A stretch of 64,000 nt of DNA from Escherichia coli (GTDB lineage: Bacteria; Pseudomonadota; Gammaproteobacteria; Enterobacterales; Enterobacteriaceae), in the NCBI GenBank assembly GCA_025336725.1, contig GCA_025336725.1_3647.1. One strand, written 5' to 3'. Made by a program: the position numbers and the translations under genes. The notes below the pieces were generated by a model. That model ran no database searches. It was not told the origin of the DNA and saw only the letters and a list, made by a program, of their open reading frames with translations. How positions within the stretch are numbered: position 1 is the first letter of the stretch; each line of letters starts with the position of its first letter. This document shows, piece after piece, positions 19,606-59,209 of this stretch.

Positions 19606-20088
19606 ATGGCGGTCAATGTGGCTTACAACACAGGAAAGCTTGACAGAGACATTGGGTGTCTTGTCCTTTCAGATACAGAGGAGTATTGGGGTTATGGGTT
19701 GCTGTCAGACCCACACCCGAGCAACCTTGTATCAACGGTGCTCTATCGCTACGACCCTGTACCAACGGTGCACGACAAAGATATTCACGACCTTCGGATC
19801 AAGTGTCTGGAAGATCTTCTGAACAATGGCTGCAACGATCTGCGGGTAGCCAAGGAGAAGCTTACAAACATTCACAAAGAGGAAGTGATGAGCACCCTCA
19901 GTAAGAGGTCAGTGCACAAAAAGATGATGTTAAACTTTGCGATGGGTATCTACATGGATGGGTATAAGGGAGGGGATCCGATCCTCAAGCTTCGCTGCCC
20001 AACACTGTGGGAAAGAGTGGTTGACAGTAAAGACAGTACTGCCCTGCTAGAGAACTCCACACTGCAGGTTGGATTTGGCGGTATGTAG
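19606..20088 (+). CDS. hypothetical protein
   Basis: 160 aa ORF. Confidence 0.45.
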   Translation: MAVNVAYNTGKLDRDIGCLVLSDTEEYWGYGLLSDPHPSNLVSTVLYRYDPVPTVHDKDIHDLRIKCLEDLLNNGCNDLRVAKEKLTNIHKEEVMSTLSKRSVHKKMMLNFAMGIYMDGYKGGDPILKLRCPTLWERVVDSKDSTALLENSTLQVGFGGM

Positions 20089-20230
20089 ACGGATACCCTC
20101 TGTGGGCATGTGGGCCTGGGGAATTTGTTGACAGACCTAGCGCGGTAGTGGATTTGCTATTGCAGTTTGAATAAAAGGTGAGTTATAAAGCATTCATACA
20201 CCTATCAACAATACAACAAGAGAGACTGAG

Positions 20231-22154: not shown

Positions 22155-22355
22155 ATGGCTGATTTTTGTAAAGATTGCTCTGAAGAGTTGTTTGGCTTTG
22201 ACTGCAAAGATTTGGAAGGTCTGATCACTGAGGATCAGTGGAAGGAAGGCTATGCAGCACCTGTTATTTGTGAAGGTTGTGGCTATACCTATGTTGACCA
22301 TAAAGGTAAGCGCGTCAAGCCGTCTGAAGATGGGGCATGTTGGGAGTATTACTAA
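22155..22355 (+). CDS. small Cys-rich (zinc-ribbon-like) protein
   Basis: 66 aa; CKDC...C..C and EGYAAPVICEGCG motifs. Confidence 0.45.
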   Translation: MADFCKDCSEELFGFDCKDLEGLITEDQWKEGYAAPVICEGCGYTYVDHKGKRVKPSEDGACWEYY

Positions 22356-22363
22356 CTATAAAA

Positions 22364-22390
22364 GAAAGGGGGCATTTCTCCCTTTTTTAT
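22364..22390. terminator. bidirectional terminator at convergence of plus and minus operons
   Basis: GGGGG-CATTT-CTCCC hairpin with T-rich flank on the plus strand (TTTTTTAT) and on the minus strand (TTTCTTTT). Confidence 0.5.
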
Positions 22391-22395
22391 CTTTA

Positions 22396-23043
22396 CTACT
22401 TGTTAAAGAGAGAAAGTCGCGTAGGCTCCAGACGATACTGCTGGTCACCAGGGAACATAACACCTATAGAGGCTGTCCCTAGAATCCTACCTTCCTTTCC
22501 AGACTCCATTCTGAACCCTACCCATCCTGAACTCCTTGCAGCCTCGATGTTGTCGCTATACCCGAAAGTGGCAAGATCGTCAACACCAGCCCCAAACAGC
22601 AACTGAAGCTGACTTCTCGGAAGCCCTATAATTTCAGGAATATATGCACCAAAGTACACCATCTGCCCTACCTTAGGACCACTGCCGTACTCCATCGGCT
22701 TGCTTGTAGGAAAAGTCTTCATACCAGAAGTCCCTGCCGGATTAGGGTATGCCCCGTTTGTTGCTGTGCCTATCCACATTCTCCACTGAGGTGCCATCTG
22801 TCTGACAGTGAAAGATGTTGAAGACGTTTTGCGGCCTGCATCATCCGTAACTACAAACTTTATAGTGACATTACCAGGGGCTTTAAATGTTACCAATCCT
22901 GTGGTAGCATCCACTGTTGCAATGCTAGTATTACTACTTTCCCAAGTCTTTCTAATCCCTGGCACATTGGAAGGGGTAATAGAAGGTTCCTGCATCTGCA
23001 GTTTACCGCCCACAATCCCTATGCCGTTACCTGGATTATACAA
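22396..23043 (-). CDS. Ig-like (Big_2-type) domain protein; possibly C-terminal extension of upstream large protein
   Basis: ..WESSNTSIATVDATTGLVTFKAPGNVTIKFVV.. Big_2-like; ORF-track start is TTG, frame open from 14 nt below the upstream stop. Confidence 0.4.
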   Translation of the reverse strand: MYNPGNGIGIVGGKLQMQEPSITPSNVPGIRKTWESSNTSIATVDATTGLVTFKAPGNVTIKFVVTDDAGRKTSSTSFTVRQMAPQWRMWIGTATNGAYPNPAGTSGMKTFPTSKPMEYGSGPKVGQMVYFGAYIPEIIGLPRSQLQLLFGAGVDDLATFGYSDNIEAARSSGWVGFRMESGKEGRILGTASIGVMFPGDQQYRLEPTRLSLFNK

Positions 23044-23057
23044 CGCACCAACTTCAT

Positions 23058-26000
23058 CTACAATGTTACCTGCCTTGAGGTCAGCTTTAGAGAAGCTGGG
23101 GTGCCGTTATATGTGTGTGTCCCTGAGAAGGTTACATCTGCCTTGCCGTTGGAGATGCAAACCAAAGCATACTTCCTGTCAGGTAACTGTGCCCCAGTTT
23201 CTGGGTGAGTTTTACCCACCTGGAACACGCTCGGGTCAGTAGAGTCGTGGCTATCACTAACAGAGCTTGGACCCCCCATCAACTGTGACAAGCAATTCCT
23301 TACCCATGTCCAGTTATTGTCACTAGAGAAGTCTACAGTCAAATCAAACACAACCCACTCATTTGGCTTCCACACAGGTGTTGTGATCAACTTACCAACA
23401 CCCCCACCCTGAAGGGTAGGAGATTGTTCAGTGATCAAGGCAGAGTATGCCAGAGTTCCCAACTGCATAGTCTGGCTTGCTGTCCTCACTACCTTAGAAT
23501 CAGCATCTGTGAAGTTGTTGATGATCTGGAATGTGCCATAAGTGTTTTTACAGGTAATTCTGGCATTCAGTGTATCAATCTTTCTCACATCTGCCATGGC
23601 AGTGTTAGACACAGAGAAGTCAGAAGCTTTAGCTGAGTTTGCTGCAACAGCCGGATCAACGTTGAGGGTTGCGTTGAACTGGCAGGCAGGAGTAACCAGT
23701 AGCTTGTTATCACCTATTTGCTTCCATGAAACACTTTGAACAGGGAGATTCCATTTAATACCTGAGAAAACTTTAGCAACCCTTGGTCCCAAAGCTCCAG
23801 TTCTATTGTCTTTACAGCACATAGACATAGTGATCGTTGACGGAGTTGCTTGACCAAACAATTGCTGTGCTTTTGCAGAGGACATAGTGTAGAAATTGTC
23901 CTTAACAAACTCATCAGCCGCTAACGATCCGTCAGACCTCCACCATTGTACCTGGTACCCTGTCTTATCCCAGCCACCAACCTGCTTCAAGTCCTCCCAA
24001 GAGATTTCTAGATCCCCAGTGGTAGGATTGATTGCAGCAGTTCCTGGTGTACCGGATGACCACAATGGGATATCGAACCACGCAGGTTTAACAGATTGCA
24101 CTGCGTTAGGACCTATTGCAGCAGCAAGTTGCCGGCCCATCAATACGCGAGCATCTTTCACCAGACCCCACTCGATCATAGATCCAGAGTAACCTTCTTT
24201 CTTGTAGGCTGAGGATCCGTTCAGATGGATGAGTCTGCTGCAGTCGAAGCCATACGCCCCGCCACCGTTAGGGTCTGCAAAGTTAGTTATGATTCTATCC
24301 CTAATATTTTTCCATGCCCTACCTCCAATCTCGTAGCCATGATCATAGCATCTTTGCAACGTTGTCCAGCAAATGATTGCCATTCTTCTGCCGCCCGTGA
24401 ACCCGAAAGCGCCGTCATTCAGCTCTTTCCACAGGTAACAGTTGGTTGTCCACATAGCCCTGTGGATATTGAACCAGTTTATAGATTTAGCGGAGTTGTT
24501 CCACCGAGTTCCGGGTAATTCAGGCCACACTGCATTTACTAGCATGTCCTCTGTACCAGCATCTATCAGGAAGCCTCTTACCTTCTTGCCCATACCTGCC
24601 CTGTCTTTAGCAATCCAATTGCCAAACAGTCTCAGTTTTGGACCGTAGACAACATCTTCTGGATGCTCAAAAGAAACATACTTTAGATATACTGTAGGGT
24701 CACCATAGGTGCCATCACAAACAGCTTTGTGCATGTTCTCGCCAAGATCTAAACGAAGTCCTGTTACAACTTTAGACGTGTCGGTGAATTTGTCTGTTAA
24801 ATCAAATTCATACCACCACCATCCACCGCCAAGCATGAATTTCTTGCATCGCACAGTGTCTGTATCGGATATTCTCTTATCCCCAGCAAAAGGTGAATCA
24901 GCAAACTGATAGTGCAGAGCAGTCTCGAACAGATGTGTTGATGTGCCGTTTTCTGCAAGAACTTGCTTGCCTATTAAGTCACACTTAATGATCATCACAA
25001 CACGCTTGTACCCGTTTGTTACCGGAACTTGCATAGATATAGATGTTCCGTCCATGTTCGATCTTAGTACGGTCATGATGATATAGGGGTCAACAGCGTT
25101 GCCTAAAGTTTCAGGCCCTGGGATTATCTTGTACTTCTTGACCTGCCCCATAAATCTATCACTGGCGTAAGTTGCAGCCTCTAAGCAAGAGCCTCCACCA
25201 GGTAACTCACCAGGTCCCCAGAAAAATGCGCCATAACAGTTATAAAACCACTTGTTAGGGTCGTATTTGTTCTTGAAGGTCTGAACCTCGTTGGCCTGTT
25301 TTGTCAAGAAAACCTGCGTATCTGTGAAGATTGCAGGGTTTACTCTTGACTGTCGATTAGCATACCCGGTTTGGTTAAACCATTGATTGCAAGAGTAGTC
25401 CCTCATATAGTCATAATCAGAGTATTTGTTGTTTGCATCCTCGTTCCAACACATATTGAGGTTGGTGCCGCCCATGCACACAATATATTCTTCAACGTAT
25501 TTATCACTTCTGGTAGGAACACCTATGAACCATCTGTTAACAGGCTCATCCCAAGCGGTGCGCTCATCTTTAACGCAGATCGCAATCCAGTTATGTGTCC
25601 CTGTTTTCTTGCACACATCTCGCTTCATACCGTAGTAGAATTCTTTAGTATTTGGCTCAGGTGCGCTTATTAGGTAGCTCCACGCCTGGTCCGCATAGGT
25701 TCCATTGGTACGAGGGTCATGATCAAAAGCATACATGATGATCCTTTCCCCACCAAGATGTTCGCCAAGAGTAACTTTGATATTCACATCGCCGTAACCG
25801 TTGCGAACAACATCCATATTGTCAATAGAGATGCCTCTAGGGGTGTAGGCAATTTTCAGTGAGTTATCCTCACTAGTGCCACCAAGGGTGATCCCTATGT
25901 TGTTTGTTGTCCCGTCGGCATATCTTACTGTGGCTTCCCAGCGTATTCCGAAATATCCTACATCATGGCTGACAATTTTCAGTGTACGAGCACCAGAGTT

Positions 26001-26369
26001 AGGTTTTCCAGGATCAGGCCAAGGGTTTGGGTGTTCGTGAACAGTTAACGATGTCCCGTTTTGTTCATTGACCTGCAACATTTTACCACCTCTGCCGTTT
26101 GGGTTGAACTCCCATAAGGCCTGTGTCTGCACCAAGTTATCATAGGTATTTCGTCGCTGATTATAAATCTCTTGGGTAACATCATAAGTTACTGATCCAG
26201 CATCCATTCTATGGAGTCTGACCATATACGATGTATCCCCTTCTACTGCAGGCTGAGCCGCATTCAGTCCAAAGTATATAGTATCATTAACATGGAACTG
26301 TTTGTTTCTACCGACAGTATGCCATTTACCATCAGACTGGTAAGCCGGGACAATGGTGTTCCAGTTCAA
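23058..26369 (-). CDS. large tail fiber / tailspike-like protein with putative carbohydrate-active domain
   Basis: 1103 aa; ORF-track start is TTG without good RBS; frame open upstream into 3' end of ORF 26423..28033. Confidence 0.45.
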   Translation of the reverse strand: MNWNTIVPAYQSDGKWHTVGRNKQFHVNDTIYFGLNAAQPAVEGDTSYMVRLHRMDAGSVTYDVTQEIYNQRRNTYDNLVQTQALWEFNPNGRGGKMLQVNEQNGTSLTVHEHPNPWPDPGKPNSGARTLKIVSHDVGYFGIRWEATVRYADGTTNNIGITLGGTSEDNSLKIAYTPRGISIDNMDVVRNGYGDVNIKVTLGEHLGGERIIMYAFDHDPRTNGTYADQAWSYLISAPEPNTKEFYYGMKRDVCKKTGTHNWIAICVKDERTAWDEPVNRWFIGVPTRSDKYVEEYIVCMGGTNLNMCWNEDANNKYSDYDYMRDYSCNQWFNQTGYANRQSRVNPAIFTDTQVFLTKQANEVQTFKNKYDPNKWFYNCYGAFFWGPGELPGGGSCLEAATYASDRFMGQVKKYKIIPGPETLGNAVDPYIIMTVLRSNMDGTSISMQVPVTNGYKRVVMIIKCDLIGKQVLAENGTSTHLFETALHYQFADSPFAGDKRISDTDTVRCKKFMLGGGWWWYEFDLTDKFTDTSKVVTGLRLDLGENMHKAVCDGTYGDPTVYLKYVSFEHPEDVVYGPKLRLFGNWIAKDRAGMGKKVRGFLIDAGTEDMLVNAVWPELPGTRWNNSAKSINWFNIHRAMWTTNCYLWKELNDGAFGFTGGRRMAIICWTTLQRCYDHGYEIGGRAWKNIRDRIITNFADPNGGGAYGFDCSRLIHLNGSSAYKKEGYSGSMIEWGLVKDARVLMGRQLAAAIGPNAVQSVKPAWFDIPLWSSGTPGTAAINPTTGDLEISWEDLKQVGGWDKTGYQVQWWRSDGSLAADEFVKDNFYTMSSAKAQQLFGQATPSTITMSMCCKDNRTGALGPRVAKVFSGIKWNLPVQSVSWKQIGDNKLLVTPACQFNATLNVDPAVAANSAKASDFSVSNTAMADVRKIDTLNARITCKNTYGTFQIINNFTDADSKVVRTASQTMQLGTLAYSALITEQSPTLQGGGVGKLITTPVWKPNEWVVFDLTVDFSSDNNWTWVRNCLSQLMGGPSSVSDSHDSTDPSVFQVGKTHPETGAQLPDRKYALVCISNGKADVTFSGTHTYNGTPASLKLTSRQVTL

Positions 26370-26422
26370 AGTCCTTGTTGTATGAGTCCTGCCTGTGCCA
26401 TGTTTGTCATGATAGGTTATTT

Positions 26423-28033
26423 TTACGGATACAGCCCACGTCTGTTAACATTCCTGTTATACTGGGTGACAATAACTTCGTTGGCCCCTCCGTGGTTCCA
26501 GTTGGTAGAGAATTGGTAATTTGCATCTGTAACAACCGTGCCTGCAGCATTTACCAGTTCAATCTTGTCAATAATGAACGTAGCCCCCTCTGGCTGAGGC
26601 TTCAATTTCATCTTGACTGTGTCGCCAATGTAGATATTGCTAACGCTGCTAACACCGTTAACGTCGAAAATATCATCAACTCCCCAACTGTCTACTGGGA
26701 CATTTTTATACCAATTCTCAGGAACCTCTGTGAACCCTTGACTATTAAGTCTGCCGCCAAACAGGTTATTAGAACCTGCAAAACTTCCCCTTGGAATGCC
26801 TGACCACCAAAGTTTACCATTAACAACAGTAAAAGTCCCTAAGAAACCTTCTCTGTGAATGCCTTGGAAATAAACACTTTCTGTCCAGCTAACTGGGAGG
26901 CGTTGCTCAACGTATTTGGCTGTGGCAAGAGCTTGATAGTGGATAAAATTGGCCCTGGGGCTATTGTTTGCAGACTGTGCACCAATATCATTACATAAGT
27001 TGCGAGAGAATCCGCGATACTGCTTAGTACCATTATTGAAGAAAATGCCACTTGTTCCGTACCCACGAGCCATTATTACTTCATGGGTGTAGGTAATATT
27101 TAAGGAACGCCATGTATCATCTCCCCAGACATCTTGCCCGTAGAATACGTTAACAAGCTGCTGATCATTAGGCTTGTGCATCCTCTGCGTTGCAATTATC
27201 GCCCCGTTAGGACCACACATGAATCCTTTCCACTCCTCATCTGCAGGAATGCCTTTCAAATCGTTGCGAGTAATCTGAGCAGGGGGCCAAACAAGGTCGT
27301 TTCTACTGTTGTTTCTCAGAAAGTCGTATCCAGCAATCCAAAAACCTCTAGGCCCACCGAAAATAACAGAGTTGTCATGCACCTCGCAGTTGATACTTGG
27401 GTTTTTCCAAGGGCCTGTTTCAGGATTTTCTGATGTTTCACCAATCTTTACAGGAGTTGCATGCTGGTTCTTATCTACATGTAAAGATCCGTAGGTGTTG
27501 TTACCAGACCCATACAGGTTCAGTATGCCAGTACCTTCTGCCTCTGCAATAACCCAGACAGTGTTGTTAATACCTCCCATTACCTCAATAAGGCGCTCTG
27601 GGTGGGTGTCAAGGTGCAATCCTTTAACAATCTGTTCCGGAAGAGGTGTCCACTCGTTGACGCAAACATCGTTACCACCTGCCGCAGTGGATCCGATAAG
27701 ACCTGCAGTGCAGCCGATGTAGAAAAACTGGTTATCAAAAGTCCGGATCACAAACGCACGGTCTGCTCTCCACACATGATCAACATTCCAGGCTGTCTCG
27801 CTCGGGTAGTTTATAGGGCTACGATCCCCAGTGCGACACTCCCCGAACTTGTTATAGCCAGTAATATTAAGCTGACCATCGTCAAAAAGTATAGCTAAGC
27901 TATTTACATAAGCTACTGTAGTGCTTGTACCGTCACTGTTGTCTATTGGATATGACAGAACAGCAAGTTCCTTAACTCCACTCCTCTTATCGAGGAAATG
28001 ACGACCAAGTTTTAGCAAAGGGATTGGAAGCAT
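26423..28033 (-). CDS. tail fiber/tailspike-like protein, possibly N-terminal part of the 23058..26369 protein
   Basis: 536 aa; ATG with GGAGA RBS; Gly/Asn-rich beta-rich repeats. Confidence 0.45.
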   Translation of the reverse strand: MLPIPLLKLGRHFLDKRSGVKELAVLSYPIDNSDGTSTTVAYVNSLAILFDDGQLNITGYNKFGECRTGDRSPINYPSETAWNVDHVWRADRAFVIRTFDNQFFYIGCTAGLIGSTAAGGNDVCVNEWTPLPEQIVKGLHLDTHPERLIEVMGGINNTVWVIAEAEGTGILNLYGSGNNTYGSLHVDKNQHATPVKIGETSENPETGPWKNPSINCEVHDNSVIFGGPRGFWIAGYDFLRNNSRNDLVWPPAQITRNDLKGIPADEEWKGFMCGPNGAIIATQRMHKPNDQQLVNVFYGQDVWGDDTWRSLNITYTHEVIMARGYGTSGIFFNNGTKQYRGFSRNLCNDIGAQSANNSPRANFIHYQALATAKYVEQRLPVSWTESVYFQGIHREGFLGTFTVVNGKLWWSGIPRGSFAGSNNLFGGRLNSQGFTEVPENWYKNVPVDSWGVDDIFDVNGVSSVSNIYIGDTVKMKLKPQPEGATFIIDKIELVNAAGTVVTDANYQFSTNWNHGGANEVIVTQYNRNVNRRGLYP

Positions 28034-28047
28034 TGTGTTCTCCAGAT

Positions 28048-28072
28048 AAGAAAACCGCCCCGTCAGGAGCGG
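28048..28072 (-). terminator. rho-independent terminator
   Basis: Minus strand CCGCTCC-TGAC-GGGGCGG followed by TTTTCTT, downstream of ORF 28082..29827. Confidence 0.5.
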
Positions 28073-28081
28073 TCAGATATA

Positions 28082-29827
28082 TTAACGTTGTGCAATAACC
28101 ACATCCACAATATCACCAACACCACAATATGTCAATTGTAGCAAGGTGACACTGTTGGCTTTGTTGTTAATAACAGGAGTAGCCGACAGTATGGCATATT
28201 TATCGTGTAAAGTCACGTTGTGGCCTACAGCATCCTGAATGACATAGATGATTGCAGTGAACGGGTAAGGTTTATCTTCAGCCGATGTTCCAGGCCATTG
28301 CCCTATTGTAAAATCCCCTTTCGCGTGGACAACATACATATTGGCCTGCCCGTTAGGTGTCCATGTCCCACTAGATGCGTCAGCCTCCTCTAAGTCAAAC
28401 TCCACCTTCCCTGCATGGAAAGCAGGGGCAGTAATAGTTTTACCAGCTTCAATTTCTTGAGAGGTGGTTATCTTGCCACTGGAGTTAATGCCATTACAGA
28501 CAAAGTTGACATTAGAGAAGTCTGGCAGCCACCCAGTCACTGTACCTGATATTTCAAGGTTGTGAAGGTAGGTGGTGCCCGTCCCTGCTGCGTTTAAACT
28601 AACATCTCCATTTACCTGCAAGTTTCTGGTAACGTTGCAGTTTTCAGAGTTTGCAGTTGTTGCAGTTAGAGTGGTGGTTGTCAGCTCGGTAATTACACCT
28701 TTGTTGGCTGTAAGCCCCTCTCCTTCAAAAGTGGCACGCTCATTCACCCTCAGAGTATTTAAAGATATGTTCTGGACAGATGCTGTGCCACGAATGACTA
28801 TAGATCCACCAACCTCTAAATCTCCATTGATCAGTGCATCTCCCGTGCTTTCAATATAGCTAGGGTAGATCATGGTGCCATCTACAGAGTAGGTTATCCC
28901 TGTAACGGTGCCTGTCACCTCAAGGTTCTTAACCCTAGTGGTCCCATCAACCTGCAATGTCGGTTCGGTGGCTGCCTTCATGGCATTACCACGAATGTAC
29001 ACGTAGTCAAAAAAGTTATTACCTAGACCATCAAAATGCACATCGTTGTTATTAGCCACTGGTTTCCCAGAAGTTATAGTGTCAGCTATAACTCTGTGAG
29101 TTGATACTTCATGAGGTTGCAGCTCTGTGCTTCTCCAGTCTGCATGCTTAGGATCGCTCCACGCAAAAGTTAGTGTAGAAGTATTTGCCGTAAGGATTAG
29201 GTTCCTGAAGCGTGCAGTAGAATCTGCTCCATTAACAGGCCCGTGTAAGGTAAGGGTGCCCCCAACTATGGTGTTAGCAAGTTCTGTAAGACCTTTTACC
29301 ACCAAAGATCCTACAGTAACTTTCATCCCCTCCATGGCTTTAAATATGCTATCCACATAGTCAACAACAAACTCTGTGTTTGCTATAGACTCTGACTTAT
29401 CATCCATCGGAGGTGTAGGTACTCTCGGGTCACCTTCGAACCTTGGGCTGTTAAGTTTTGCGTAGTATTTTGCCATTACTGCAGAATCGGTGTATAATCT
29501 CCAGTTCGGAGATTGTGAAGGATCTGCTGGCATCCTAACCGGGTTAGATTTTGATGCTGCTGGGGCGTACCACCACTGAGTGCCTGTATCCCCTTTAAAC
29601 TCATACAACTGGTTAAAAACTGTTGTGGATGCACCATACGCCCAAGGGATTGGTGGCGTTTTAAAATAAAGGGTGTCAAGCATGGCTTTTCGTACCGTAG
29701 GGATGGTGGTCCCATCCTCTACGACAACTTCATCCACAGCGTTACCGTTGACAATCAAGTGCAAACGTTCAGAATCAACAATTACTTGATCTACCGCCTG
29801 CTCGAAGCTTGTCATGTCTTGCGCCAT
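28082..29827 (-). CDS. tailspike/tail fiber protein (beta-helix-like repeats)
   Basis: 581 aa; AGGAGA RBS; repetitive ..NLEVTGTVTG.., ..NLEISGTVTG.. segments. Confidence 0.5.
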   Translation of the reverse strand: MAQDMTSFEQAVDQVIVDSERLHLIVNGNAVDEVVVEDGTTIPTVRKAMLDTLYFKTPPIPWAYGASTTVFNQLYEFKGDTGTQWWYAPAASKSNPVRMPADPSQSPNWRLYTDSAVMAKYYAKLNSPRFEGDPRVPTPPMDDKSESIANTEFVVDYVDSIFKAMEGMKVTVGSLVVKGLTELANTIVGGTLTLHGPVNGADSTARFRNLILTANTSTLTFAWSDPKHADWRSTELQPHEVSTHRVIADTITSGKPVANNNDVHFDGLGNNFFDYVYIRGNAMKAATEPTLQVDGTTRVKNLEVTGTVTGITYSVDGTMIYPSYIESTGDALINGDLEVGGSIVIRGTASVQNISLNTLRVNERATFEGEGLTANKGVITELTTTTLTATTANSENCNVTRNLQVNGDVSLNAAGTGTTYLHNLEISGTVTGWLPDFSNVNFVCNGINSSGKITTSQEIEAGKTITAPAFHAGKVEFDLEEADASSGTWTPNGQANMYVVHAKGDFTIGQWPGTSAEDKPYPFTAIIYVIQDAVGHNVTLHDKYAILSATPVINNKANSVTLLQLTYCGVGDIVDVVIAQR

Positions 29828-30112: not shown

Positions 30113-30850
30113 TTAAGCATAAGATATCGTGATCCATTGACCGTTTACAAATTTTTGAATAGCACCAGTCCAATAGTCACCTTGATACGGGTGTTTATAG
30201 GCGTAATTGCCGGAGCACATTACATGCCCAGGGTATACTCTTGATTCTCTGTAGGTGGTTCTGAAACGGTTTGCTATCCTTACATCTTCAACACCCCTAC
30301 TAGGCATAGGGATAGTAAGGTTACCACTGCTATCTGCGCTACTACCATTTACCCTGCGGACCACGTTTCTCCCACCAACTGTTGCATATTGACCTCTGGC
30401 GGTTTTATCGTTACAATCTACTCTTCCCCCTATTTGAGCGCTGCCGCAGGATTGTTGTCCATTAACAGTGGCTCTAGGTATCGTTACCGCATTAGCATTT
30501 GCAGAGGAGCTTTTTGCATCATTGCATTCAAGATTCCCTTGGATAGCCAGTCTTGCACGGTTGGCAGTTATAGCATTGAGCTTCATAGCCGAAAACACAG
30601 GTTGCCCACCAGAAGGTTGAAATCTCCAACGGAAACCGTCTATTTGGTGAGAGGGATCATCAAGGTCTGTGCCGTCAGCACCACCTATGTTGTCCATAAT
30701 CCAGAAATCCATCATCGTCTTGTCTGGAGTTATGGTGGTGTATATCGCCGCATTGTCTGTTGACGCGGATGCGAACTCGATTCTTTGAAGACCTAAAGTT
30801 TGAGTCTGGATCATTGTGTCTCCAGCCTTGTCAACATAAAGGTCATCCAT
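30113..30850 (-). CDS. tail fiber 1, C-terminal part (P2 gpH / Mu S-like); frame-split from N-domain ORF
   Basis: C-terminus ..AIQKFVNGQWITISYA resembles P2 gpH end (..IQKYINGTWYNVAQV); paralogue of 32171..32956. Confidence 0.6.
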   Translation of the reverse strand: MDDLYVDKAGDTMIQTQTLGLQRIEFASASTDNAAIYTTITPDKTMMDFWIMDNIGGADGTDLDDPSHQIDGFRWRFQPSGGQPVFSAMKLNAITANRARLAIQGNLECNDAKSSSANANAVTIPRATVNGQQSCGSAQIGGRVDCNDKTARGQYATVGGRNVVRRVNGSSADSSGNLTIPMPSRGVEDVRIANRFRTTYRESRVYPGHVMCSGNYAYKHPYQGDYWTGAIQKFVNGQWITISYA

Positions 30851-31161
30851 TTCTTCAGGCGAGTATACATTGAGAACTTGACGTGCGGCAGCTTTGTCTG
30901 GAACGTCTGCTGATTATTAGTGACCCTTAAGAATCTATTATCCCATCCTGGGACAACATCTTCTGTTAAATGCTTCAACATTTGGTGAGAGAGCATGTGA
31001 AGTTCAAAGTTATCAACCTCACATGCCACTCTTTGTGTCATATCCCAACCTTTCAATCTCTCTTCTTTTTTTGGCTGAGACTTATTCAACTCTCCCGTAT
31101 TTTCAAGCACAACATCCTGATTGGCCCAAATATCAAGAGGGATAACTGGTTTAGTCATCAC
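30811..31161 (-). CDS. tail fiber 1, N-terminal domain ORF (different frame)
   Basis: AGGAG RBS + ATG; MMTKPVIPLDIWANQDVVL..KGWD.. homologous to N-domain ORF 33019..33213; last ~45 codons look out of frame. Confidence 0.5.
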   Translation of the reverse strand: MMTKPVIPLDIWANQDVVLENTGELNKSQPKKEERLKGWDMTQRVACEVDNFELHMLSHQMLKHLTEDVVPGWDNRFLRVTNNQQTFQTKLPHVKFSMYTRLKKWMTFMLTRLETQ

Positions 31162-31209
31162 GTTCTCCTGAGAAAATTCCTTAGACTATTTTAACACTTT
31201 AGAGAACAA

Positions 31210-31240
31210 ATGCAAGAACGGAGTCCTTTCCGTTCTGACC
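31210..31240 (-). terminator. terminator-like hairpin
   Basis: Minus strand GAACGG-AAAGGACT-CCGTTC followed by T-rich tract, upstream of fiber-1 RBS. Confidence 0.3.
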
Positions 31241-31368
31241 TTTGTTTACCTTTTACTATGCTCTACGAGCATGTGCAAAATCTTTTGTATAGTCGGCTCG
31301 ATGTTTCGAGACATCTGTCCTGACATCCTGCTTAAGGTCGTTAATATCGGCCTCTAGCTTGCTTAACT

Positions 31369-31560
31369 CTAAGTCTCGATAACGGAATCGTTATCTTTTT
31401 GTAACCATGCTATTTTCGACACTAAAATGAGGTCTTTCTCCAGCTCATCTAGCCTCTTGGAAATTCCTTTCATTTGCACACTGGTTGAAAGCCCATACAC
31501 AGATCGGGACAACAGTAGCTTCCATGCAGATACCGTATAAAGCCGCCAAATCCAACCCAC
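31369..31560 (-). CDS. small hypothetical protein; coiled-coil continuation in -1 frame to 31256
   Basis: GTG start 5 nt after strong GAGGAGG RBS; -1 frame continues ..LSKLEADINDLKQDVRTDVSKHRADYTKDF.. with no start codon. Confidence 0.4.
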   Translation of the reverse strand: MGWIWRLYTVSAWKLLLSRSVYGLSTSVQMKGISKRLDELEKDLILVSKIAWLQKDNDSVIET

Positions 31561-32170: not shown

Positions 32171-32956
32171 CTATGCATAATTAACAGTGATCCATTGACC
32201 ATTTACAAGTTTTTGTAAAGGTCCTGCCCAGTAGGTTGAACCACGCATCTCTTTTTTGTCACCGAAATGCCAGCCTGTGACAACGTAGCCGTTGCGGATT
32301 GGAGATTCAGAAACGCCGTCCACAAGTCTTGCACCGATTCTGATGTCTTGCACACCTGTCTGCGGGATAGTGATCGTTACATCACCGTTACCGTTAGCCG
32401 TCACTCCGTTCACAGAGCGAACCACATTTCTGTTACCTACAACACAGTGCTGGCTTCTTACAACCATACTGTCACAACTTGCACCACCATTAACATATAC
32501 TGACCCAGCCGTCAACTGACTGGCAACATTACAGTTGGTGAATGTTGCTGTATTGCTGATAGTAAGGTTATTGCACCTCATGTTATCGACAACTTCAACA
32601 TTGCCTACCACTTTCAACAGCGCACGGTTAGCCGTGATCGCGTTAAGGTACATCAAAGTGAACTCTGGATTAATATCCGGCTGAGTTGGCTGGAATCTCC
32701 AACGAAACGCATCTACTGTAGATGTGCCACCATCATCAAACGCCCCAGTGTTATCACTTAACCCAAAGTCGAGAGTTGTCTTATCTGGACCGATAGTTGT
32801 CTCTATCCAAGCCTTATCTGTCTCGGCAGCTTTAAAGTTGATACGCTGCAAACCTAAGGGGCCTGTCATTGTATCGCCTGTAACTTTTACATACCTGGCG
32901 TCTGCCTCTTCCTTAGTAATAATCCCAAGGTTTCTACGGGCAACAGGAATGTTCAA
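32171..32956 (-). CDS. tail fiber 2, C-terminal part (P2 gpH / Mu S-like); frame-split from N-domain ORF
   Basis: C-terminus ..PLQKLVNGQWITVNYA; ORF-track start is TTG preceded by TGA TAA TAA; followed by Tfa gene. Confidence 0.6.
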   Translation of the reverse strand: MNIPVARRNLGIITKEEADARYVKVTGDTMTGPLGLQRINFKAAETDKAWIETTIGPDKTTLDFGLSDNTGAFDDGGTSTVDAFRWRFQPTQPDINPEFTLMYLNAITANRALLKVVGNVEVVDNMRCNNLTISNTATFTNCNVASQLTAGSVYVNGGASCDSMVVRSQHCVVGNRNVVRSVNGVTANGNGDVTITIPQTGVQDIRIGARLVDGVSESPIRNGYVVTGWHFGDKKEMRGSTYWAGPLQKLVNGQWITVNYA

Positions 32957-33018
32957 AAATCGCTCAGGTTATTATCACGTATTGTGATAACGGCCCTCTG
33001 TAAGGTGGGATCTGCTCG

Positions 33019-33213
33019 TCAGCAATATATTTTGCCCAAGTCCCGGAGCATATTGAAAATATAGTTAAGTTCTTCACATGACGGCTTTTGACCAAGATCC
33101 CAACCTTTTCTCCACAAATCATCAATCGGGCGTAGCCTGTTCTGTCTGTGGGTGTTAGGCAGAACCTGATCCTCCTCTGCCCAAATCTCTAATGGAAAAC
33201 TAGGTTTTGACAT
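33019..33213 (-). CDS. tail fiber 2, N-terminal domain ORF
   Basis: 64 aa; MSKPSFPLEIWAEEDQVL..KGWD.. homologous to 30811..31161. Confidence 0.5.
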   Translation of the reverse strand: MSKPSFPLEIWAEEDQVLPNTHRQNRLRPIDDLWRKGWDLGQKPSCEELNYIFNMLRDLGKIYC

Positions 33214-37591: not shown

Positions 37592-38144
37592 TTAGTCGTG
37601 AGACTCGTTCCAAGGTCCCTGGAAGCTTGAGTTAGAACGGCTTACCACAACAGTAGGACAGGATATTGCGACCCCTGTTACAGAAGACGTTGACCATGGT
37701 GTGTAGATTTCAACAACAATATCTATGGTTTGTTCACCAAGACCTGTTATCCCTACCGCACACATGCCGTTGTTGTCGTTTCCGTATTTCTTACCTGCAA
37801 GGATTTGATGTCCGGCTATCCAAACGTTGAGCTGGGGTTTCGGCAAGAGTAGCCATTCAGTTTAAAGAAGAATGTTACGTTCTTACCCTGACCTGAAACG
37901 TTATCTACGTATCTCCACCTCCAACGGCAAACCCTTTGCTTGGGAGTTATATACTGGAGCACAATCCCCGTAAGTCCCTGTGTGTGCAACAATTGCACCG
38001 AACTGGTTAGCACGGATAACAGAAGCTTCTACACGACCACGGAAGGTATCTCCGGTTGCATCTATGGTGCCTCTAAAGCTACCATTATTGGCATAAATAT
38101 CCCCACGGAAGGTACCACTAGTGGCGTTAACTGCCCCCGTGAAG
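37592..38144 (-). pseudogene. frameshifted 3' continuation of lambda J-like gene (receptor-binding region in three frames)
   Basis: After stop at 38145 a -1 frame encodes ..GNFTGAVNATSGTFRGDIYANNGSFRGTIDATGDTFRG.. (lambda J C-terminal-like), then two more frame changes (ORFs 37816..38013, 37592..37846). Confidence 0.5.
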
Positions 38145-41100
38145 TTACCAGAACTGGCGTTGAGCGTTGCCTTTCACCCACACATCCATAAATTGGGGCG
38201 TGCCCGTTCTTGTTAATATACCAACCGTATTTATGGTACTTCCGTTGCCATCGTAGTTGTTTGACGAAATCTCCTGTGCAATCTTGGCTGAAGAGATCGT
38301 GCCATTTTCTATGAAGGCATCTTTCAAGAACGCTTGGTTGTTCTTGATTGCGAAAGCAAGGGTTGCTGTTCCGTTTCCAGGGTTATATACCGCAAAATTG
38401 TTTGCACTAACCATAAAGTAGGATTGAACTTGGCCCCCAGACCCTTCCATCCCCAACTGGATACCTGCAACATATTTATTCCCTGCGGAGTCCACCTGTA
38501 TTTTTGTGCCCCACTGAGCGTTTACTTTACCCTCTAAGTCGGTTACAGCCTTAGATGTTGTAGCTACTGCAGCCCTGATCTCGGACACATCTCCAACATC
38601 ATCAATGATCTCCTGCTTAGCAACAGCAAGTTCTTGACGAATAGCTGACGCTGTTCCGTTAATCAGGTCAACAGTGGCCTGATTAGTTTCAGAAATATTT
38701 GCAGACAAATCTTTCTTAGCTTGGGTAAGCTTATTATCCAACCCCGTAATATTGTTGGTGTTGGTTGTAATCTGCCCTTTAGCAGAGGTTAATTGTTCAG
38801 ATAAGGCTGCAGTTTTCTGATTCAGCAGGTCCGTTGTGGCCTTGTTGGTGGTAGAGATCAATGTATTGAGATCAGATTTAGTGGTGTTGATCTTGCCATC
38901 TAGAGTGGTGTAGTTTTTAGATACCGTGGCGTTAGTCTGGCTAATCTTCTGGTCAAGAGTCTGAGAAGTTCTATTCAGCAAATCCACAGTGGCCTGATTG
39001 GTGCTCAGAATGCTTGCATCCAGCTCAGATCTCTGAGTATTCAACTTACCTTCCAGGCTCTTATCTCCAGCCAGATATCCTTTTTCAACATCACCGATCT
39101 GCTCGGTTAGCTCACCTTGTGCAGCAACCAGTTTTTCATCCAACGCATCTGTTTTCTTGTTAAGAAGATCAGTGGTGGATTTGTTGGTTGTCTCAATCAA
39201 CGACGACAGTTTGGCACTCTCATTATTCAAGTTGTTGGTCAACTCACCTTTCGTTGCCGTCAGCTTATTGTCCAGTGCCTCGGTTTTCCGATTAAGGAGA
39301 TCTGTAGTCGTCTTATTGGTTGATACAATCAGAGAGTTCAGCTCAGAGCTTTCCTGTGCTAAAGCATCTTCCAACTCCCCCCTTGTTGAAACAATCTTCT
39401 CGTCCAAAGCTTCAGTTTTCTGATTTAGCAGATCGGTTGTAGCTTTGTTAGTGGTCTGGATTAGAGAAGTCAGCTTGCCACTTTCTTTAGAAAGATCATC
39501 TGCAAACTTGTTCTGAGTGGCTACCAGTTTCTGGTCTAGAGTGGTAAGCGTTCCATTAACGTCCTGGAAGTTGTCGTGGGTTTCTTGGATGAATATTCCA
39601 ACCCTATCCCCCAACTGAGCATACAGCTTGTCTACTCTAGAGAACTCACCTTCCATGTGGTCAAAAGCCTCGTCAACTCTACCATCCATGTACCTGTTAA
39701 GTTCTGTGACACGATTTTCAACCTCTTCAATAGAGGAATCCAAAGTGCTCATCAACTCTTTATAAGTTTCTGTCTTTTTGAATTCAGCATCTATCTGAGG
39801 CATCAAATCCTCGATAGAGGTGTAGCAGCGTGCAGCGCATTCTACAAACTGAGAGCTACCAAAAGCGTTTGTGGTTCGAATATACCAATAATAAACCTTA
39901 TCGTTCTGCAGGCCTTCAGATGTCCAAGTTGAACCAACACCCATACGGGTGGCGTTTGAAGTAACGGTTGCATCGCTGGTGTCGGGCAACCTTGTCATAC
40001 CAGATGTCCAAAAGTCATACTGGGTGCTTACACTTGCTAAATCCCTGCTGTGTGGAATCAAGGTGATAGCAAAGTATCCCTGCTTAACCTCTACAGAAAC
40101 AGGAGCTTCAGGTGCCTGAATGTTAAACTCGCAGTACGCTTCTGGAGATACACCACCTTTATAAGATGTTGCAACCACGGTTGCTGTGTATGATCCTTTG
40201 GTCAAGCCTTCTACTCGGACAAACTGCTCAACTGTCTGTGCTGTCCAAACAATCTCTCCGTTCTTTCTTACCTGCACAATATTTTGAGCGTAAGTTCCAA
40301 CGTTGTCCCAAGCCAAAACACCGTGAGTTACTTCCCCGGCTTGGAGAACGGAATACCTGAAGTTTTGCGGTTGAGCTACACCAGATGGAGATATCGGAAT
40401 ATCTACATTACCAGAGTCCGGAAGTTGTCCTGTGGCATCATTCCACTCTTTAGCATCTTGACGGAGTTTTACCTTGACACCACCCTTTTTAGTAAACTCC
40501 CATTCAAGAACCCTCATTTCTTGGCCCACTATACCAATACTTGGGAGGTTCATTGTAACGTAACGACCAGGTTTAAATTTAAAACCTCGCATATTGCAGG
40601 TGACTTCAATAATCCTGCCAGCTCTAGCGCGTCTTAAGAAGATTGCAGAAACACGCTGGGCTTGATAAGGGCTGGTAACAAAGCGATAGTCTATATCGAT
40701 TATCTTTCTTTCTCCATCCTTCTCTATCCACTCTGGGACAAACACTGATGGAAAATCTGTTTCAGAATATCCTTTGGTCGGGCTAGTGAATCTGCCAGTT
40801 ATTGTGTTGGATCTTTTGTCAAACGAGGCTTCCGGATAGATCTTAACCTCACCACAGACACAGTCCTCACTCAGTGTCATTGTTGCAGGGCCATAGTATG
40901 CACCAACCAGCAAACCATACTTACCAGCAACATAACTAAGATCTGCACCACAGGCTTTCAGCATTTCTGCCATAATACTTGCTGGGGCCTCATCCATGTC
41001 GAACTCACCGTTAATTGTGTAACGTCGCTCACTGGTTCCGTCAGCGTTTTTTACCGCCTCGTCGCATATGTTGGCAGCCTCCTTGAAGGACTCCCAGTTG

Positions 41101-50533: not shown

Positions 50534-51118
50534 TTAGTTAACATCAATAGCACGACCAGACTGGTTGGCAATAGCCTCATCATTGGAGGTAGCAATAACA
50601 CCAGAGTATTCGCGCTCATCTGGAGCAAGCGTCCAGGTATTGCGGTTAATGGTTTGTTCTGCCTCAGTCATCAGCAGATCTTTATCCTGAGTCAACAGAG
50701 AGCCTACAGGGATCGGGTTTTCCATCTCAGGACCAGCATACTGGTTCCACCATGTGGCATCTCCGGTTCTAGGCAATCTGAAGTTGATCAGGTAGTACAG
50801 TTTATTAGCCCACTTAATCCAACCCTCATCATCACAGAGAGAGGTTGTCCCAGAATCAGGCTGTGGGTAGGTGAACTGATCAAGACCTACGAAAGCCAGC
50901 CTTACAATCTCGTTCTCTTTGGTAACAACCTCAAAGAACGCTTGGTATGTTCTAGATCTTCGATCCATGGTAGACTGGAAGTTTATGATGTTTAGCACAT
51001 CCGGCTCTTGTCTTGCCACTTCCATAATCTTGTTATCAAGAACAGTCTTCATGACCTTCTTGCTGAGAAAGTCCATATAAGGGAGCAAACAGCTCGTCAG
51101 CAGCCAGCTCCCTTCCAC
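50534..51118 (-). CDS. baseplate wedge protein gp25/W-like, C-terminal part (frame-split)
   Basis: ORF-track GTG start without RBS; ..KIMEVARQEPDVLNIINF.. downstream of N-part in another frame. Confidence 0.4.
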   Translation of the reverse strand: MEGSWLLTSCLLPYMDFLSKKVMKTVLDNKIMEVARQEPDVLNIINFQSTMDRRSRTYQAFFEVVTKENEIVRLAFVGLDQFTYPQPDSGTTSLCDDEGWIKWANKLYYLINFRLPRTGDATWWNQYAGPEMENPIPVGSLLTQDKDLLMTEAEQTINRNTWTLAPDEREYSGVIATSNDEAIANQSGRAIDVN

Positions 51119-51246
51119 GTATTAAACCTCATCCACAAGCGCTGGCGCAGACTTACCTGGTTTGAATCTATCAACTCAAGACCTTTGTCTATCGCCAAAT
51201 CGCCTGTCTGCGGGTCCATCAATATGTCACTATAAAGCGTAGCCAT
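51097..51246 (-). CDS. baseplate wedge protein gp25/W-like, N-terminal part (49 aa ORF)
   Basis: ATG at 51246 with AGGG RBS right after gpV-like stop; MATLYSDILMDPQTGDLAIDKGLELIDSNQVSLRQRLWMRFNTWKG matches gp25/W N-terminal pattern. Confidence 0.4.
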   Translation of the reverse strand: MATLYSDILMDPQTGDLAIDKGLELIDSNQVSLRQRLWMRFNTWKGAGC

Positions 51247-53332: not shown

Positions 53333-53878
53333 TTATTTTCCGTTAACTTTGTTGTAGTTCCCCTGCTCAGATGGGACTATGGTGGAAGGTCTTCCATATT
53401 CCTGATAATACCAATCTGCAGCCGATTGGGTAACACCGTTTTCATCTGTCCACATCATGGATTTGTATGGCTGCCACTCTTCTGCAGCATTTGTGGACGC
53501 GGTGTCTGCAAATGCCCCTGTGTCTCTCTTGTTACCTACGTTACTACCATTCTTGCAATCGTTGACAGCCCCTTTTTGCTGGGTCTTGCCGACCTTCTTG
53601 GGGTTGCTGTATACAGTTGCATTAACAACCTTGTTCAAGTAGAATGTGCGGAATTCTGTAAGTTCCACATCAAACACCATTGCAGCACCCTCACCAACAG
53701 ACTTGTTGGCAGAAAGACTGGTTATAATGTAGTTTTCAAGGAGTCTCTCTTCAGTAACTAAAGAAACCAACTGCCGCTTATTAATGATCTCGTCAAAGTT
53801 TCCAGTGCAGCGCCGCAAGTCGCATAGACGCTGCAGGGTTTTTAGAGTCAGTATTCCTGTCAATGTAGTTTTGCTCAT
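53333..53878 (-). CDS. hypothetical tail protein
   Basis: 181 aa; ATG at 53878 directly after in-frame TAA; overlaps upstream ORF by 86 nt. Confidence 0.4.
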   Translation of the reverse strand: MSKTTLTGILTLKTLQRLCDLRRCTGNFDEIINKRQLVSLVTEERLLENYIITSLSANKSVGEGAAMVFDVELTEFRTFYLNKVVNATVYSNPKKVGKTQQKGAVNDCKNGSNVGNKRDTGAFADTASTNAAEEWQPYKSMMWTDENGVTQSAADWYYQEYGRPSTIVPSEQGNYNKVNGK

Positions 53879-54218
53879 AGATTATATGTGGTGATGTATT
53901 TACCCTACCAGTAAAAGAAAATACACCATCTTTAATTACAGCGTGGTCTGACAGGGTAGATTTATCTTCCACCGCAAACCCAGTCTTATCAACAGAATGT
54001 TTGAAAGAATAGTTCTCAACCTGGTCGAAGATAATGGCAAGATCGTTAGTAAAGTTTTTACCCTTCATCTCCGTATTGCGACCACCATAGTTAAGACCGC
54101 TGACAAACATAGTATACTTTACATCGCTTTCAGTTTGCTGCTCTGCCTTTTCAGCCTTTGGAGATTTAACCTCTTGAGGCTTGTACAGGTCTTTTTCATC
54201 AACTATATTGCTTGGCAT
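53793..54218 (-). CDS. hypothetical tail protein
   Basis: 141 aa ORF; 3' end overlaps next gene in a different frame. Confidence 0.4.
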   Translation of the reverse strand: MPSNIVDEKDLYKPQEVKSPKAEKAEQQTESDVKYTMFVSGLNYGGRNTEMKGKNFTNDLAIIFDQVENYSFKHSVDKTGFAVEDKSTLSDHAVIKDGVFSFTGRVNTSPHIIYEQNYIDRNTDSKNPAASMRLAALHWKL

Positions 54219-54323: not shown

Positions 54324-54464
54324 TTACCAAAGGTCGGTAGACATGAAGTTGATATCTTTATTGTTCTCCCACTCAAGTTTTGCATCAAATATTTTGTTAA
54401 ACTCGCCCTCATCTATTGAAATCGTGATTTTCCCATCACTGATCTCTAAAGGTAGCATTTCCAT
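54324..54464 (-). CDS. small hypothetical ORF (46 aa)
   Basis: MEMLPLEISDGKITISIDEGEF.., below ORF-track cutoff; sits just upstream of terminator; weak RBS. Confidence 0.25.
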   Translation of the reverse strand: MEMLPLEISDGKITISIDEGEFNKIFDAKLEWENNKDINFMSTDLW

Positions 54465-54637
54465 AGTTCTTAATTGAGAAGCAAAACCGAGGCCACCCCG
54501 GCAACGGAAAATCCCGCCCCATTAAGGTGTCCAAAGGATTAACAAACCCGTTACCTCAAATGAAAGTATCTTTGCGAATCATATCGCTGATAGCATCCAG
54601 CTGCTGATTTCTTTCACTTAGTGGGTTGTAACGGTCA

Positions 54638-58762: not shown

Positions 58763-58849
58763 TATTCTTCCGCACGTTTTGCAATGAATCTCAACCTTAT
58801 CCCAGAGGTCTTGCTTACTACATGGCTATGACCATACTTTTCAGCATTT

Positions 58850-59149
58850 TCAAGGATATCTTTTTAATACCTTTTTGATCCACTCCTCGGTAGTGCACCT
58901 GTTACCACGCTCATGTGGGAATTTCTTACCCTTTCTTGATTTTGCAGATCTCTCAGCTCCACAAACAGGGCATCCTCTTTTTAGATTTATATGGTTATCA
59001 GGTGTCTGGTTGAAGTGGTTACCGCAGGTATTGCAGACTATTTCTACCTTATCTTTGCATGTTTTGTATTCTATAAGAGAATAATCGTACTTATCTCCGT
59101 GAACCCTACGAGCTTTTTCGATAAACCTTTCTGCACTCAATTTAGCCAT
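58850..59149 (-). CDS. small zinc-ribbon protein related to N-terminus of adjacent endonuclease-like gene
   Basis: 99 aa; HGDKYDYS..CNTCGNHFNQTPDNHINLKRGCPVCG parallels N-terminus of ORF 57524..58762. Confidence 0.45.
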   Translation of the reverse strand: MAKLSAERFIEKARRVHGDKYDYSLIEYKTCKDKVEIVCNTCGNHFNQTPDNHINLKRGCPVCGAERSAKSRKGKKFPHERGNRCTTEEWIKKVLKRYP

Positions 59150-59209
59150 AACTGTCTCCTCCTTTATTGTAGGATACTAAAAACAAACAAATATGTCAAA
59201 ACCCTAAAA

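Follow-up and report, generated by a model that had tools for sequence, protein, structure and literature searches.

An rV5 gene 27 orthologue that reads as three open reading frames in a Vequintavirus sequence, most probably through sequence errors

The window (the whole stretch of DNA analysed, 64,000 nucleotides) belongs to a Vequintavirus (rV5-like) coliphage, and its gene order follows EmilHeitz 0038-0048 gene for gene. It is not rV5 itself: rV5 gp37, gp41 and gp30 comprise 1279, 1272 and 347 aa, against 1199, 1269 and 245 aa for their counterparts in the window. Three consecutive open reading frames (ORFs) on the minus strand and the features associated with them are as follows.

28033..26423, minus strand: 536-aa ORF (segment 1), ATG start at 28033
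26369..23058, minus strand: 1103-aa ORF, TTG start
23043..22396, minus strand: 215-aa ORF with a Big_2 domain, TTG start
23058..26444, minus strand: segment 2, the 1103-aa ORF plus 25 open upstream codons, residues 536-1644 of the intact protein
22396..23106, minus strand: segment 3, the 215-aa ORF plus 21 open upstream codons, residues 1645-1869 of the intact protein
26429..26431, minus strand: frame break 1, one base fewer than in all relatives compared
23081..23106, minus strand: frame break 2, one base lost at ~23099 inside a CCCC run
22429..22431, minus strand: frame break 3, GGG reduced to GG
22362..22388, plus strand: terminator-like hairpin with T-rich and A-rich flanks, between the end of the gene and a convergent plus-strand gene ending at 22355

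The ATG of the 536-aa ORF is preceded by GGAG (28043-28040), and the neighbouring genes carry GGAG or AGGAG 6-9 nt 5' of their ATG codons. Unlike these neighbours, neither of the two TTG codons has a usable Shine-Dalgarno sequence; before the TTG of the 1103-aa ORF lies caacaaggact, in which AAGGA, the sole purine-rich core, stops 2 nt short of the TTG. The frame of this ORF is open for exactly 25 codons 5' of the TTG, up to 26444, and overlaps the final 22 nt of the 536-aa ORF. The coordinates confirm in this respect the preliminary description, which had reported a TTG start lacking a usable ribosome-binding site and about 25 open codons running upstream into the 3' end of the 536-aa ORF. 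Upstream of the 215-aa ORF, 21 codons are open, to 23106, and its TTG lies 14 nt past the TAG of the 1103-aa ORF (23060-23058). The offset between the two frames is +2, equivalent to -1 (26369-23043 = 3326 = 3x1108+2); this arithmetic and the Pfam result given below likewise bore out the placement of a TTG-initiated Big_2 ORF in the -1 frame, 14 nt after the preceding stop.

Profile comparison placed the three ORFs collinearly on a single family, PHROG 15684 (profile length 1878), at positions 1-535, 556-1646 and 1666-1871 (E = 0, 0 and 1e-132, respectively). In tblastn searches, residues 1-535 of Bas49_0041 matched segment 1 in one frame (96.8% identity) and residues 536-1644 matched segment 2 in a second frame (95.6% identity). 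Residues 1-535 of segment 1 correspond one to one with those of the intact protein (1877 aa), and the open codons upstream in segment 2 read ...SVKITYHDKHGTGRT, identical to the homologue. Homology extends upstream of both TTG codons, as far as the frame breaks. In a survey of annotations, 60 relatives were sampled across the ranking and 46 had a named feature under the match, which was single in 40 (39 with at least 87% coverage) and split in six. EmilHeitz and YN3 each carry one CDS, of 5634 and 5637 nt. The gene is split in ECP26 by an amber codon and in YP-6 by an extra T, at two other positions, and the split points of the window are common to no homologue compared. At identities of 53-96%, each homologue is a single protein, 1711-1930 aa long, and continues across the junctions; the homologue clusters, of 1878 aa (820 members), 1876, 1929, 1711, 1930 and 1716 aa, are contiguous there, and an IMG/VR contig is continuous over break 1 for 1458 aa. 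Relative to EmilHeitz in the single-ORF frame, dN/dS was 0.049 for segment 1 and 0.056 for segment 2.

These comparisons bear directly on whether the locus could hold three genuine, separately translated genes, two of them with TTG starts. ORF callers would indeed report three separate ORFs. Against this stand the TTG codons, which lack the usable Shine-Dalgarno sequence that the neighbouring genes possess, the homology running upstream of both TTG codons right to the frame breaks, and the failure of genes with these boundaries to occur in any homologue compared. The homologues already refute separate genes, and we give this reading virtually no credence. Homologues consistently divided at the same boundaries had been named beforehand as the observation that would speak against one gene; the opposite was found. 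The earlier proposal that the three ORFs constitute the gene for one giant protein was thus borne out by the collinear PHROG match, the annotation of relatives, the distant homologues and the three-base repair described below.

Sequence comparison strongly supports the assignment of 28033-22396 (minus strand, 5.6 kb) as a single gene orthologous to rV5 gene 27 and Bas49_0041. Full-length collinear similarity links it to rV5 gp27 (1878 aa, 208 kDa, Big_2), LL12 gp27 and Bas49_0041, the 'lateral tail fiber protein with intimin domain' of PHROG 15684. In common with this group, it closes the lateral-tail-fibre cluster, lies downstream of a 581-aa glycosidase-domain fibre gene, is convergent with small plus-strand genes and encodes a C-terminal Big_2 domain; unlike in the group, its frame is interrupted by three single-base deletions. 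For rV5, gene 27 has been described as encoding 1878 aa (208,334 Da) with a Big_2 domain (PMC3606486 Table S3), in a genome sequenced at 3.6-fold Sanger coverage (PMC3606486). The gene family is already known, and the split is an ordinary finding.

At break 1, relatives read CTGTACTCTGTAAAA and the window reads CTGTA-TCCGTAAAA, creating a TAA at 26425-26423. The corresponding region of the full-length protein is ...RRGLYSVKITYHDK.... The loss is an isolated single base in otherwise clean sequence, and neither a homopolymer nor a slippery heptamer is present at the site. Break 2 falls in the gene's densest patch of window-unique differences (10 of 30 columns), which also contains an additional in-frame 3-nt deletion at ~23085; the query covers 301 nt here, and each of the 15 best-matching relatives listed covers 305 nt, 4 nt more. 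The window has one codon fewer than its relatives at break 2; it also contains one extra Asn codon, shared with YP-6, an ordinary polymorphism. Break 3, overlooked in the preliminary description, is again an isolated single-base loss in clean surroundings. It replaces the conserved C-terminal ...RLGAYATFSL* with ...RLEPTRLSLFNK*, rewriting the last eight codons, so that the frame ends at a TAG (22398-22396) and no longer at the ancestral TAA (22405-22403); the frameshifted tail had a pLDDT of ~31 in the AlphaFold2 model. The isolation of breaks 1 and 3 in clean sequence, and the position of break 1 outside homopolymers, count against error; the dense patch around break 2 counts in its favour.

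Restoring one base at each of the three sites (~26430, 23099 and 22430) yields an ORF of 1877 aa that is 96.1% identical to Bas49_0041 over residues 1-1877. An uninterrupted ORF of ~1.7-1.9 thousand codons is missing from the sequence as given and present after the three-base repair, a discrepancy that we attribute to sequence error and not to a different gene structure. We count the single gene and the exact positions of the indels as observations, and the nature of the indels as errors, not real mutations, as what we infer.

The three frames could also be joined by programmed recoding, in which ribosome or RNA polymerase slippage by -1 at each junction would give a long product together with shorter ones. 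All three breaks require a shift in the same direction (-1), and 25 and 21 open codons precede the called starts of the downstream frames. The arrangement recalls the -1 frameshifting of the lambda G/GT-type chaperones, with overlapping frames in the tail module and a downstream frame without its own start signal. In lambda G/GT, however, the shift takes place on a slippery heptamer and is conserved among homologues, whereas the three overlap zones of the window lack both A or T runs and any canonical X XXY YYZ heptamer, and each intact homologue has one additional base per site and reads through the same residues without a change of frame. The two-frame arrangement is unique to the window and is not conserved among the single-frame homologues at 53-96% identity. 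To our knowledge, three independent recoding sites in one gene are unprecedented, and we regard recoding as highly improbable. As written, the sequence cannot yield the fused protein, and the cause lies in missing bases, very probably errors, instead of recoding.

In a three-way alignment of the window with EmilHeitz and YN3 (46.6 kb), lineage-specific small indels that are not multiples of 3 numbered 42 in the window, 10 in EmilHeitz and 6 in YN3; lineage-specific substitutions were similar (1563, 1572 and 1183, respectively). Many of the indels lie within patches where identity is 73-90% for the window and 97-100% between EmilHeitz and YN3. The excess is window-wide and not special to the fibre gene, which holds three of the 42 indels, occupies 5.6 of the 46.6 kb aligned (12%) and shows no enrichment. 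When EmilHeitz proteins were used as tblastn queries, the tape measure was recovered in five frame pieces, the tail-tube initiator in two and the baseplate protein 0023 in two. The fn3 tail fibre, both short tail fibres and genes 0037 and 0048 were also broken in the window. All of these genes are single-frame in YN3. At least nine other window genes, the tape measure included, are broken likewise. A viable phage could not carry genuine frame breaks in all of the tape measure, initiator, baseplate and short fibre genes, and the sequence is therefore unreliable. Because similar window-specific frame-breaking indels riddle these other, essential structural genes, the locus is best explained as one known gene of ~1877 aa that reads as three ORFs through three missing bases that most probably arose as mistakes in base calling or assembly. 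On this view the phage itself would translate a single full-length protein, beginning with the ATG at 28033, and the TTG 'starts' at 26369 and 23043 would be ORF-calling artefacts.

Alternatively, the three deletions could be real, and the phage or the sequenced stock could carry a recently inactivated gp27-like fibre gene. Lateral fibre genes get lost in laboratory stocks, as in the frameshift of lambda stf: in lambda PaPa, the side tail fibre gene stf is split into orf401 and orf314, a verified and real laboratory-stock mutation. The window gene has no sequence relationship to lambda stf but similarly presents a long fibre gene as adjacent ORFs in different frames through a single-base deletion. 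If inactivated in this way, the gene would yield a product ending after the N-terminal 535 residues and a single altered one, a loss like that of stf in laboratory lambda. The interruption of the gene in six of the 46 named relatives, with varied positions and lesions, suggests that it can be dispensable on laboratory hosts, BASEL data suggest effective monovalence of these phages on K-12 (PMC8594841), and the clean surroundings of breaks 1 and 3 are in keeping with real events. On the other hand, frame breaks also hit the tape measure (five pieces), tube initiator, baseplate protein and both short tail fibres, and, unlike in lambda PaPa, these many similar lesions in essential genes point to sequence error. 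The lack of indel enrichment in the fibre gene and a dN/dS of ~0.05 downstream of break 1, which indicates no long decay, argue in the same direction. Exact-pattern scans (20-mer type) with the break-1 and break-2 variants gave no matches in IMG/VR, and the variant sequences of the breaks were absent from homologous DNA in every collection scanned. Single matches in metagenome and genome collections showed no homology to the window; a 20-mer in ~6e11 bases is expected to give about one match by chance. We consider real inactivation unlikely. A phage that carries real deletions and naturally makes a ~59 kDa truncated fibre, or low-frequency full-length protein by non-canonical slippage, appears very improbable; if true, it would imply an altered or switchable tail-fibre set.

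Under the preferred explanation by sequence errors, the product would be a protein of ~1877 aa (208 kDa) encoded by the final large gene of the Vequintavirus lateral-tail-fibre cluster. Its N-terminal ~200 aa, common to other tail proteins (residues 41-197 match PHROG 11922 'tail protein', E = 1.7e-27), presumably attach to the baseplate or the fibre scaffold. A long middle region without a recognisable domain would follow, and then the C-terminus with an intimin-like Ig domain (Big_2) and a beta-rich domain of ~130 aa. The Big_2 domain was detected at residues 21-68 of the 215-aa ORF (Pfam PF02368, E = 4.7e-10, 39.7 bits, cut-off 22.8) and lies at ~22840-22983, followed by the C-terminal domain. 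The Ig part of the AlphaFold2 model was confident (pLDDT 86-93). Pfam searches of the 1103-aa ORF and the full-length protein (P0001) found only Big_2, and the 536-aa ORF gave a weak RCC1-like match (E = 1.7e-4, 21.5 bits against a cut-off of 150). The AlphaFold2 model of the N-terminal 536 aa, built from an 8-sequence alignment, was unusable (mean pLDDT 38.7). A PDB sequence search with the repaired protein returned intimin chains on top, for the Ig domain only (E ~2e-3), and no solved relative outside it. When the C-terminal model was compared with PDB folds, the top match was 7quz, a Big_2-CBM56 tandem (TM-score 0.31, driven by the Ig domain); the beta-rich domain might bind carbohydrate, which we offer as a lead only.

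Its position in the tail-fibre module, the annotation of homologues and weak virion mass spectrometry of rV5 gp27 suggest that the protein is a putative receptor-binding fibre. The rV5 virion data comprise three low-scoring gp27 peptides on both sides of break 1, with 3.1% coverage, non-tryptic and low-rank (PMC3606486 Table S5).

These results are useful mainly for annotation. The three ORFs should be entered as a single gene, or else marked as a frameshifted pseudogene, and should bear the name of an rV5 gp27 orthologue. All of the window is best handled as error-prone sequence, and any finding of an 'unusual start codon', 'overlapping frame' or 'split gene' within it should be compared with relatives before a biological reading is attempted. 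Nothing new follows for phage biology. At the position of the terminator-like hairpin beyond the end of the gene, relatives carry a cleaner GGGCC/GGCCC stem.

All three ORFs of the preliminary description, which had proposed that together they form one giant receptor-binding protein, are present with the expected start codons:

28033..26423, minus strand: 536-aa ORF, ATG start
26369..23058, minus strand: 1103-aa ORF, TTG start
23043..22396, minus strand: 215-aa ORF, TTG start

As described, the frame of the 1103-aa ORF is open upstream of its TTG, for exactly 25 codons, and reaches 26444, giving a 22-nt overlap with the 3' end of the 536-aa ORF. Likewise, the TAG of the 1103-aa ORF is followed 14 nt later, in the -1 frame, by the start of the 215-aa ORF, and 21 open codons precede the TTG of the latter. 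No usable Shine-Dalgarno sequence was found before either TTG, as had been claimed for the 1103-aa ORF, whereas nearby genes start at an ATG preceded at 6-9 nt by GGAG or AGGAG. The Pfam search identified Big_2 in the 215-aa ORF (E = 4.7e-10, above the gathering score), only a sub-threshold RCC1-like match in the 536-aa ORF, and no match in the 1103-aa ORF.

The proposal of a single gene is borne out by the relatives. All three ORFs match one family, PHROG 15684 (profile length 1878), and do so collinearly (1-535, 556-1646, 1666-1871). A megablast search with the 5.6-kb stretch matched 121 phage records, all rV5-like myophages (Vequintavirus) at 84-93.5% identity, and 108 of them span at least 80% of the query. 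In EmilHeitz (Bas49) the whole stretch is a single 5634-nt CDS (bas49_0041, ‘lateral tail fiber protein with intimin domain’), in YN3 a single 5637-nt CDS, and in rV5 the orthologue is gene 27, encoding 1878 aa (208,334 Da) with Big_2 present (PMC3606486 Table S3). When 60 records evenly spaced through the ranking were sampled, 46 carried a named feature under the match; this was a single feature in 40 (39 of them at ≥87% coverage) and several features in ECP26, YP-6, phita32, magaca, V18 and APECc02. The interruptions in ECP26 (an amber at codon 617, TAC to TAG) and YP-6 (an additional T within a T-run at about codon 400, near locus 4290) differ in place and kind from those of the window. Such multiple-feature records reflect either sequencing errors gathering in long genes or repeated fibre loss in culture. 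Queried with the 1103-aa ORF, a collection of 5.8 billion proteins yielded seven clusters, with lengths of 1878 (820 members), 1876, 1929, 1711, 1930, 1716 and 882 aa. By BLASTP these are unbroken proteins rather than separate genes with the window's boundaries: all seven run across the first junction, and those keeping the C-terminus also cross the second, down to 53% identity. An IMG/VR contig is likewise continuous through the first junction, over 1458 aa.

Alignment of the window with EmilHeitz, ECP26, YP-6 and YN3 showed that one base is absent, in the window only, at each of three sites, the third of which the preliminary description had overlooked:

about 26430, minus strand: break 1, relatives CTGTACTCTG, window CTGTA-TCCG
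about 23099, minus strand: break 2, within a CCCC run, adjoining an in-frame 3-nt deletion and several substitutions
22429-22431 (about 22430), minus strand: break 3, GGG to GG

Break 3 rewrites the last 8 codons, turning the conserved C-terminal GAYATFSL* into EPTRLSLFNK*. Restoring one base per site yields an uninterrupted 1877-aa ORF with 96.1% identity to Bas49_0041 (residues 1-1877) and 95.2% to the YN3 protein. In this single repaired frame, dN/dS against EmilHeitz was 0.049 for the 536-aa segment and 0.056 for the 1103-aa segment with its 25 upstream codons, and thus the sequence past break 1 has evolved as coding sequence; the last segment holds 18 differences, too few for a meaningful ratio. 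The break 2 patch is the densest in the gene for window-unique differences (10 in 30 columns, where the gene averages 1.75 per 100) and the break 1 patch the fifth densest. The second densest, an in-frame patch at 24545-24574 inside the 1103-aa segment (7 window-unique substitutions in 30 nt), could represent miscalls or a small recombination patch.

As far as can be read from the sequence, programmed frameshifting is excluded: the overlap zones of the three breaks all lack an X XXY YYZ heptamer, and the two-frame arrangement is seen in the window only. The break 1 and break 2 variants were not found in homologous DNA of IMG/VR, nor was the break 1 variant in homologous DNA of the metagenome and genome collections, where two 20-mer matches lacked homology to the window and are due to chance.

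The three missing bases are very probably sequence errors, judging from the state of the window as a whole. When EmilHeitz proteins were compared with the window and with YN3 by tblastn, every protein tested kept one frame throughout in YN3. The tape measure gene of the window (54324-56662, minus strand; 775 aa in relatives) falls into five frame pieces with at least 10 window-specific indels, and ORF calling yields fragments of 415 and 153 aa. For a lateral fibre gene, a recent real inactivation by three deletions would be plausible biologically, if less economical, but a tape measure in five pieces in the same window is incompatible with a viable phage; the fault therefore lies in the sequence and not in the phage, and this breakage is the clearest sign of many indel errors. 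Also in the window, two pieces were seen for the tail-tube initiator and two for baseplate protein 0023, the fn3 lateral tail fibre changes frame close to its C-terminus, and both short tail fibres and genes 0037 and 0048 are also broken. Frame changes relative to EmilHeitz and YN3 lie at:

53333-54218: tail-tube initiator
50534-51246: baseplate protein
37592-38241: fn3 C-terminus
32171-33213 and 30116-31158: both short fibres
31186-31560: 104-aa gene, alone with 10 window-specific indels
19606-20174: 188-aa gene

Lineage-specific differences in the 46.6-kb three-way alignment (small indels not a multiple of 3; substitutions)
Window: 42; 1563
EmilHeitz: 10; 1572
YN3: 6; 1183

Many window indels fall in patches where the window is 73-90% identical while EmilHeitz and YN3 are 97-100% identical to each other, a pattern that resembles poor sequence quality more than evolutionary divergence. 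The giant fibre gene makes up 12% of the aligned length and contains 3 of the 42 indels, so that it is not singled out. For annotation, the three ORFs should be merged into one gene, and frame-level oddities elsewhere in the window should be distrusted.

Since this gene is already known and conserved in Vequintavirus, nothing about it is novel. It is the last of the lateral-tail-fibre cluster; these phages are described as co-expressing three lateral fibre sets, with gp27 as the final large gene among the lateral tail fibres and moderate allelic variation in it (PMC8594841). Residues 41-197 match a PHROG ‘tail protein’ family (E = 1.7e-27), and in mass spectrometry of rV5 virions gp27 is listed at 3.1% coverage, from 9 spectra and 3 peptides (PMC3606486); all three peptides are non-tryptic and low-ranked, two of them mapping to the first segment and one to the second. 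AlphaFold2 modelled the C-terminal 215 aa (mean pLDDT 70.5) as a confident Ig domain and, C-terminal to it, a beta-rich domain of moderate confidence, with the frameshifted last ten residues disordered (pLDDT about 31); the best PDB fold match was a Big_2-CBM56 tandem with a TM-score of just 0.31. As a working model, the protein would form a fibre or spike anchored at the baseplate, with a distal Ig and beta-sandwich end that may contact surface glycans.

Other differences from EmilHeitz and YN3 were observed. Both lack a 1642-nt insertion (~57550-59191, minus strand) that separates the tail tube gene from the gene after it and carries a gene for an HNH/homing endonuclease (PHROG 559, E = 1e-88); this gene is itself split into 99-aa and 412-aa ORFs. 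EmilHeitz genes 0027, 0053, 0054, 0070 and 0075 have no blastn match within the window; among them are genes for an N6-adenine methyltransferase and for a homing endonuclease adjoining the primase. Lateral fibre genes 0026 and 0031 are strongly diverged in their C-terminal parts, which is the allelic variation that the BASEL study (PMC8594841) describes.

Upstream of the giant gene, two signals were found:

28053-28074, minus strand: terminator-like hairpin (9-bp stem, 6 GC pairs, T-rich tail) in the 48-nt gap directly before the ATG
28107-28135, minus strand: promoter-like site (10/12 consensus positions) within the 3' end of the fibre gene upstream

On these consensus matches, the gene may be under its own transcriptional control.
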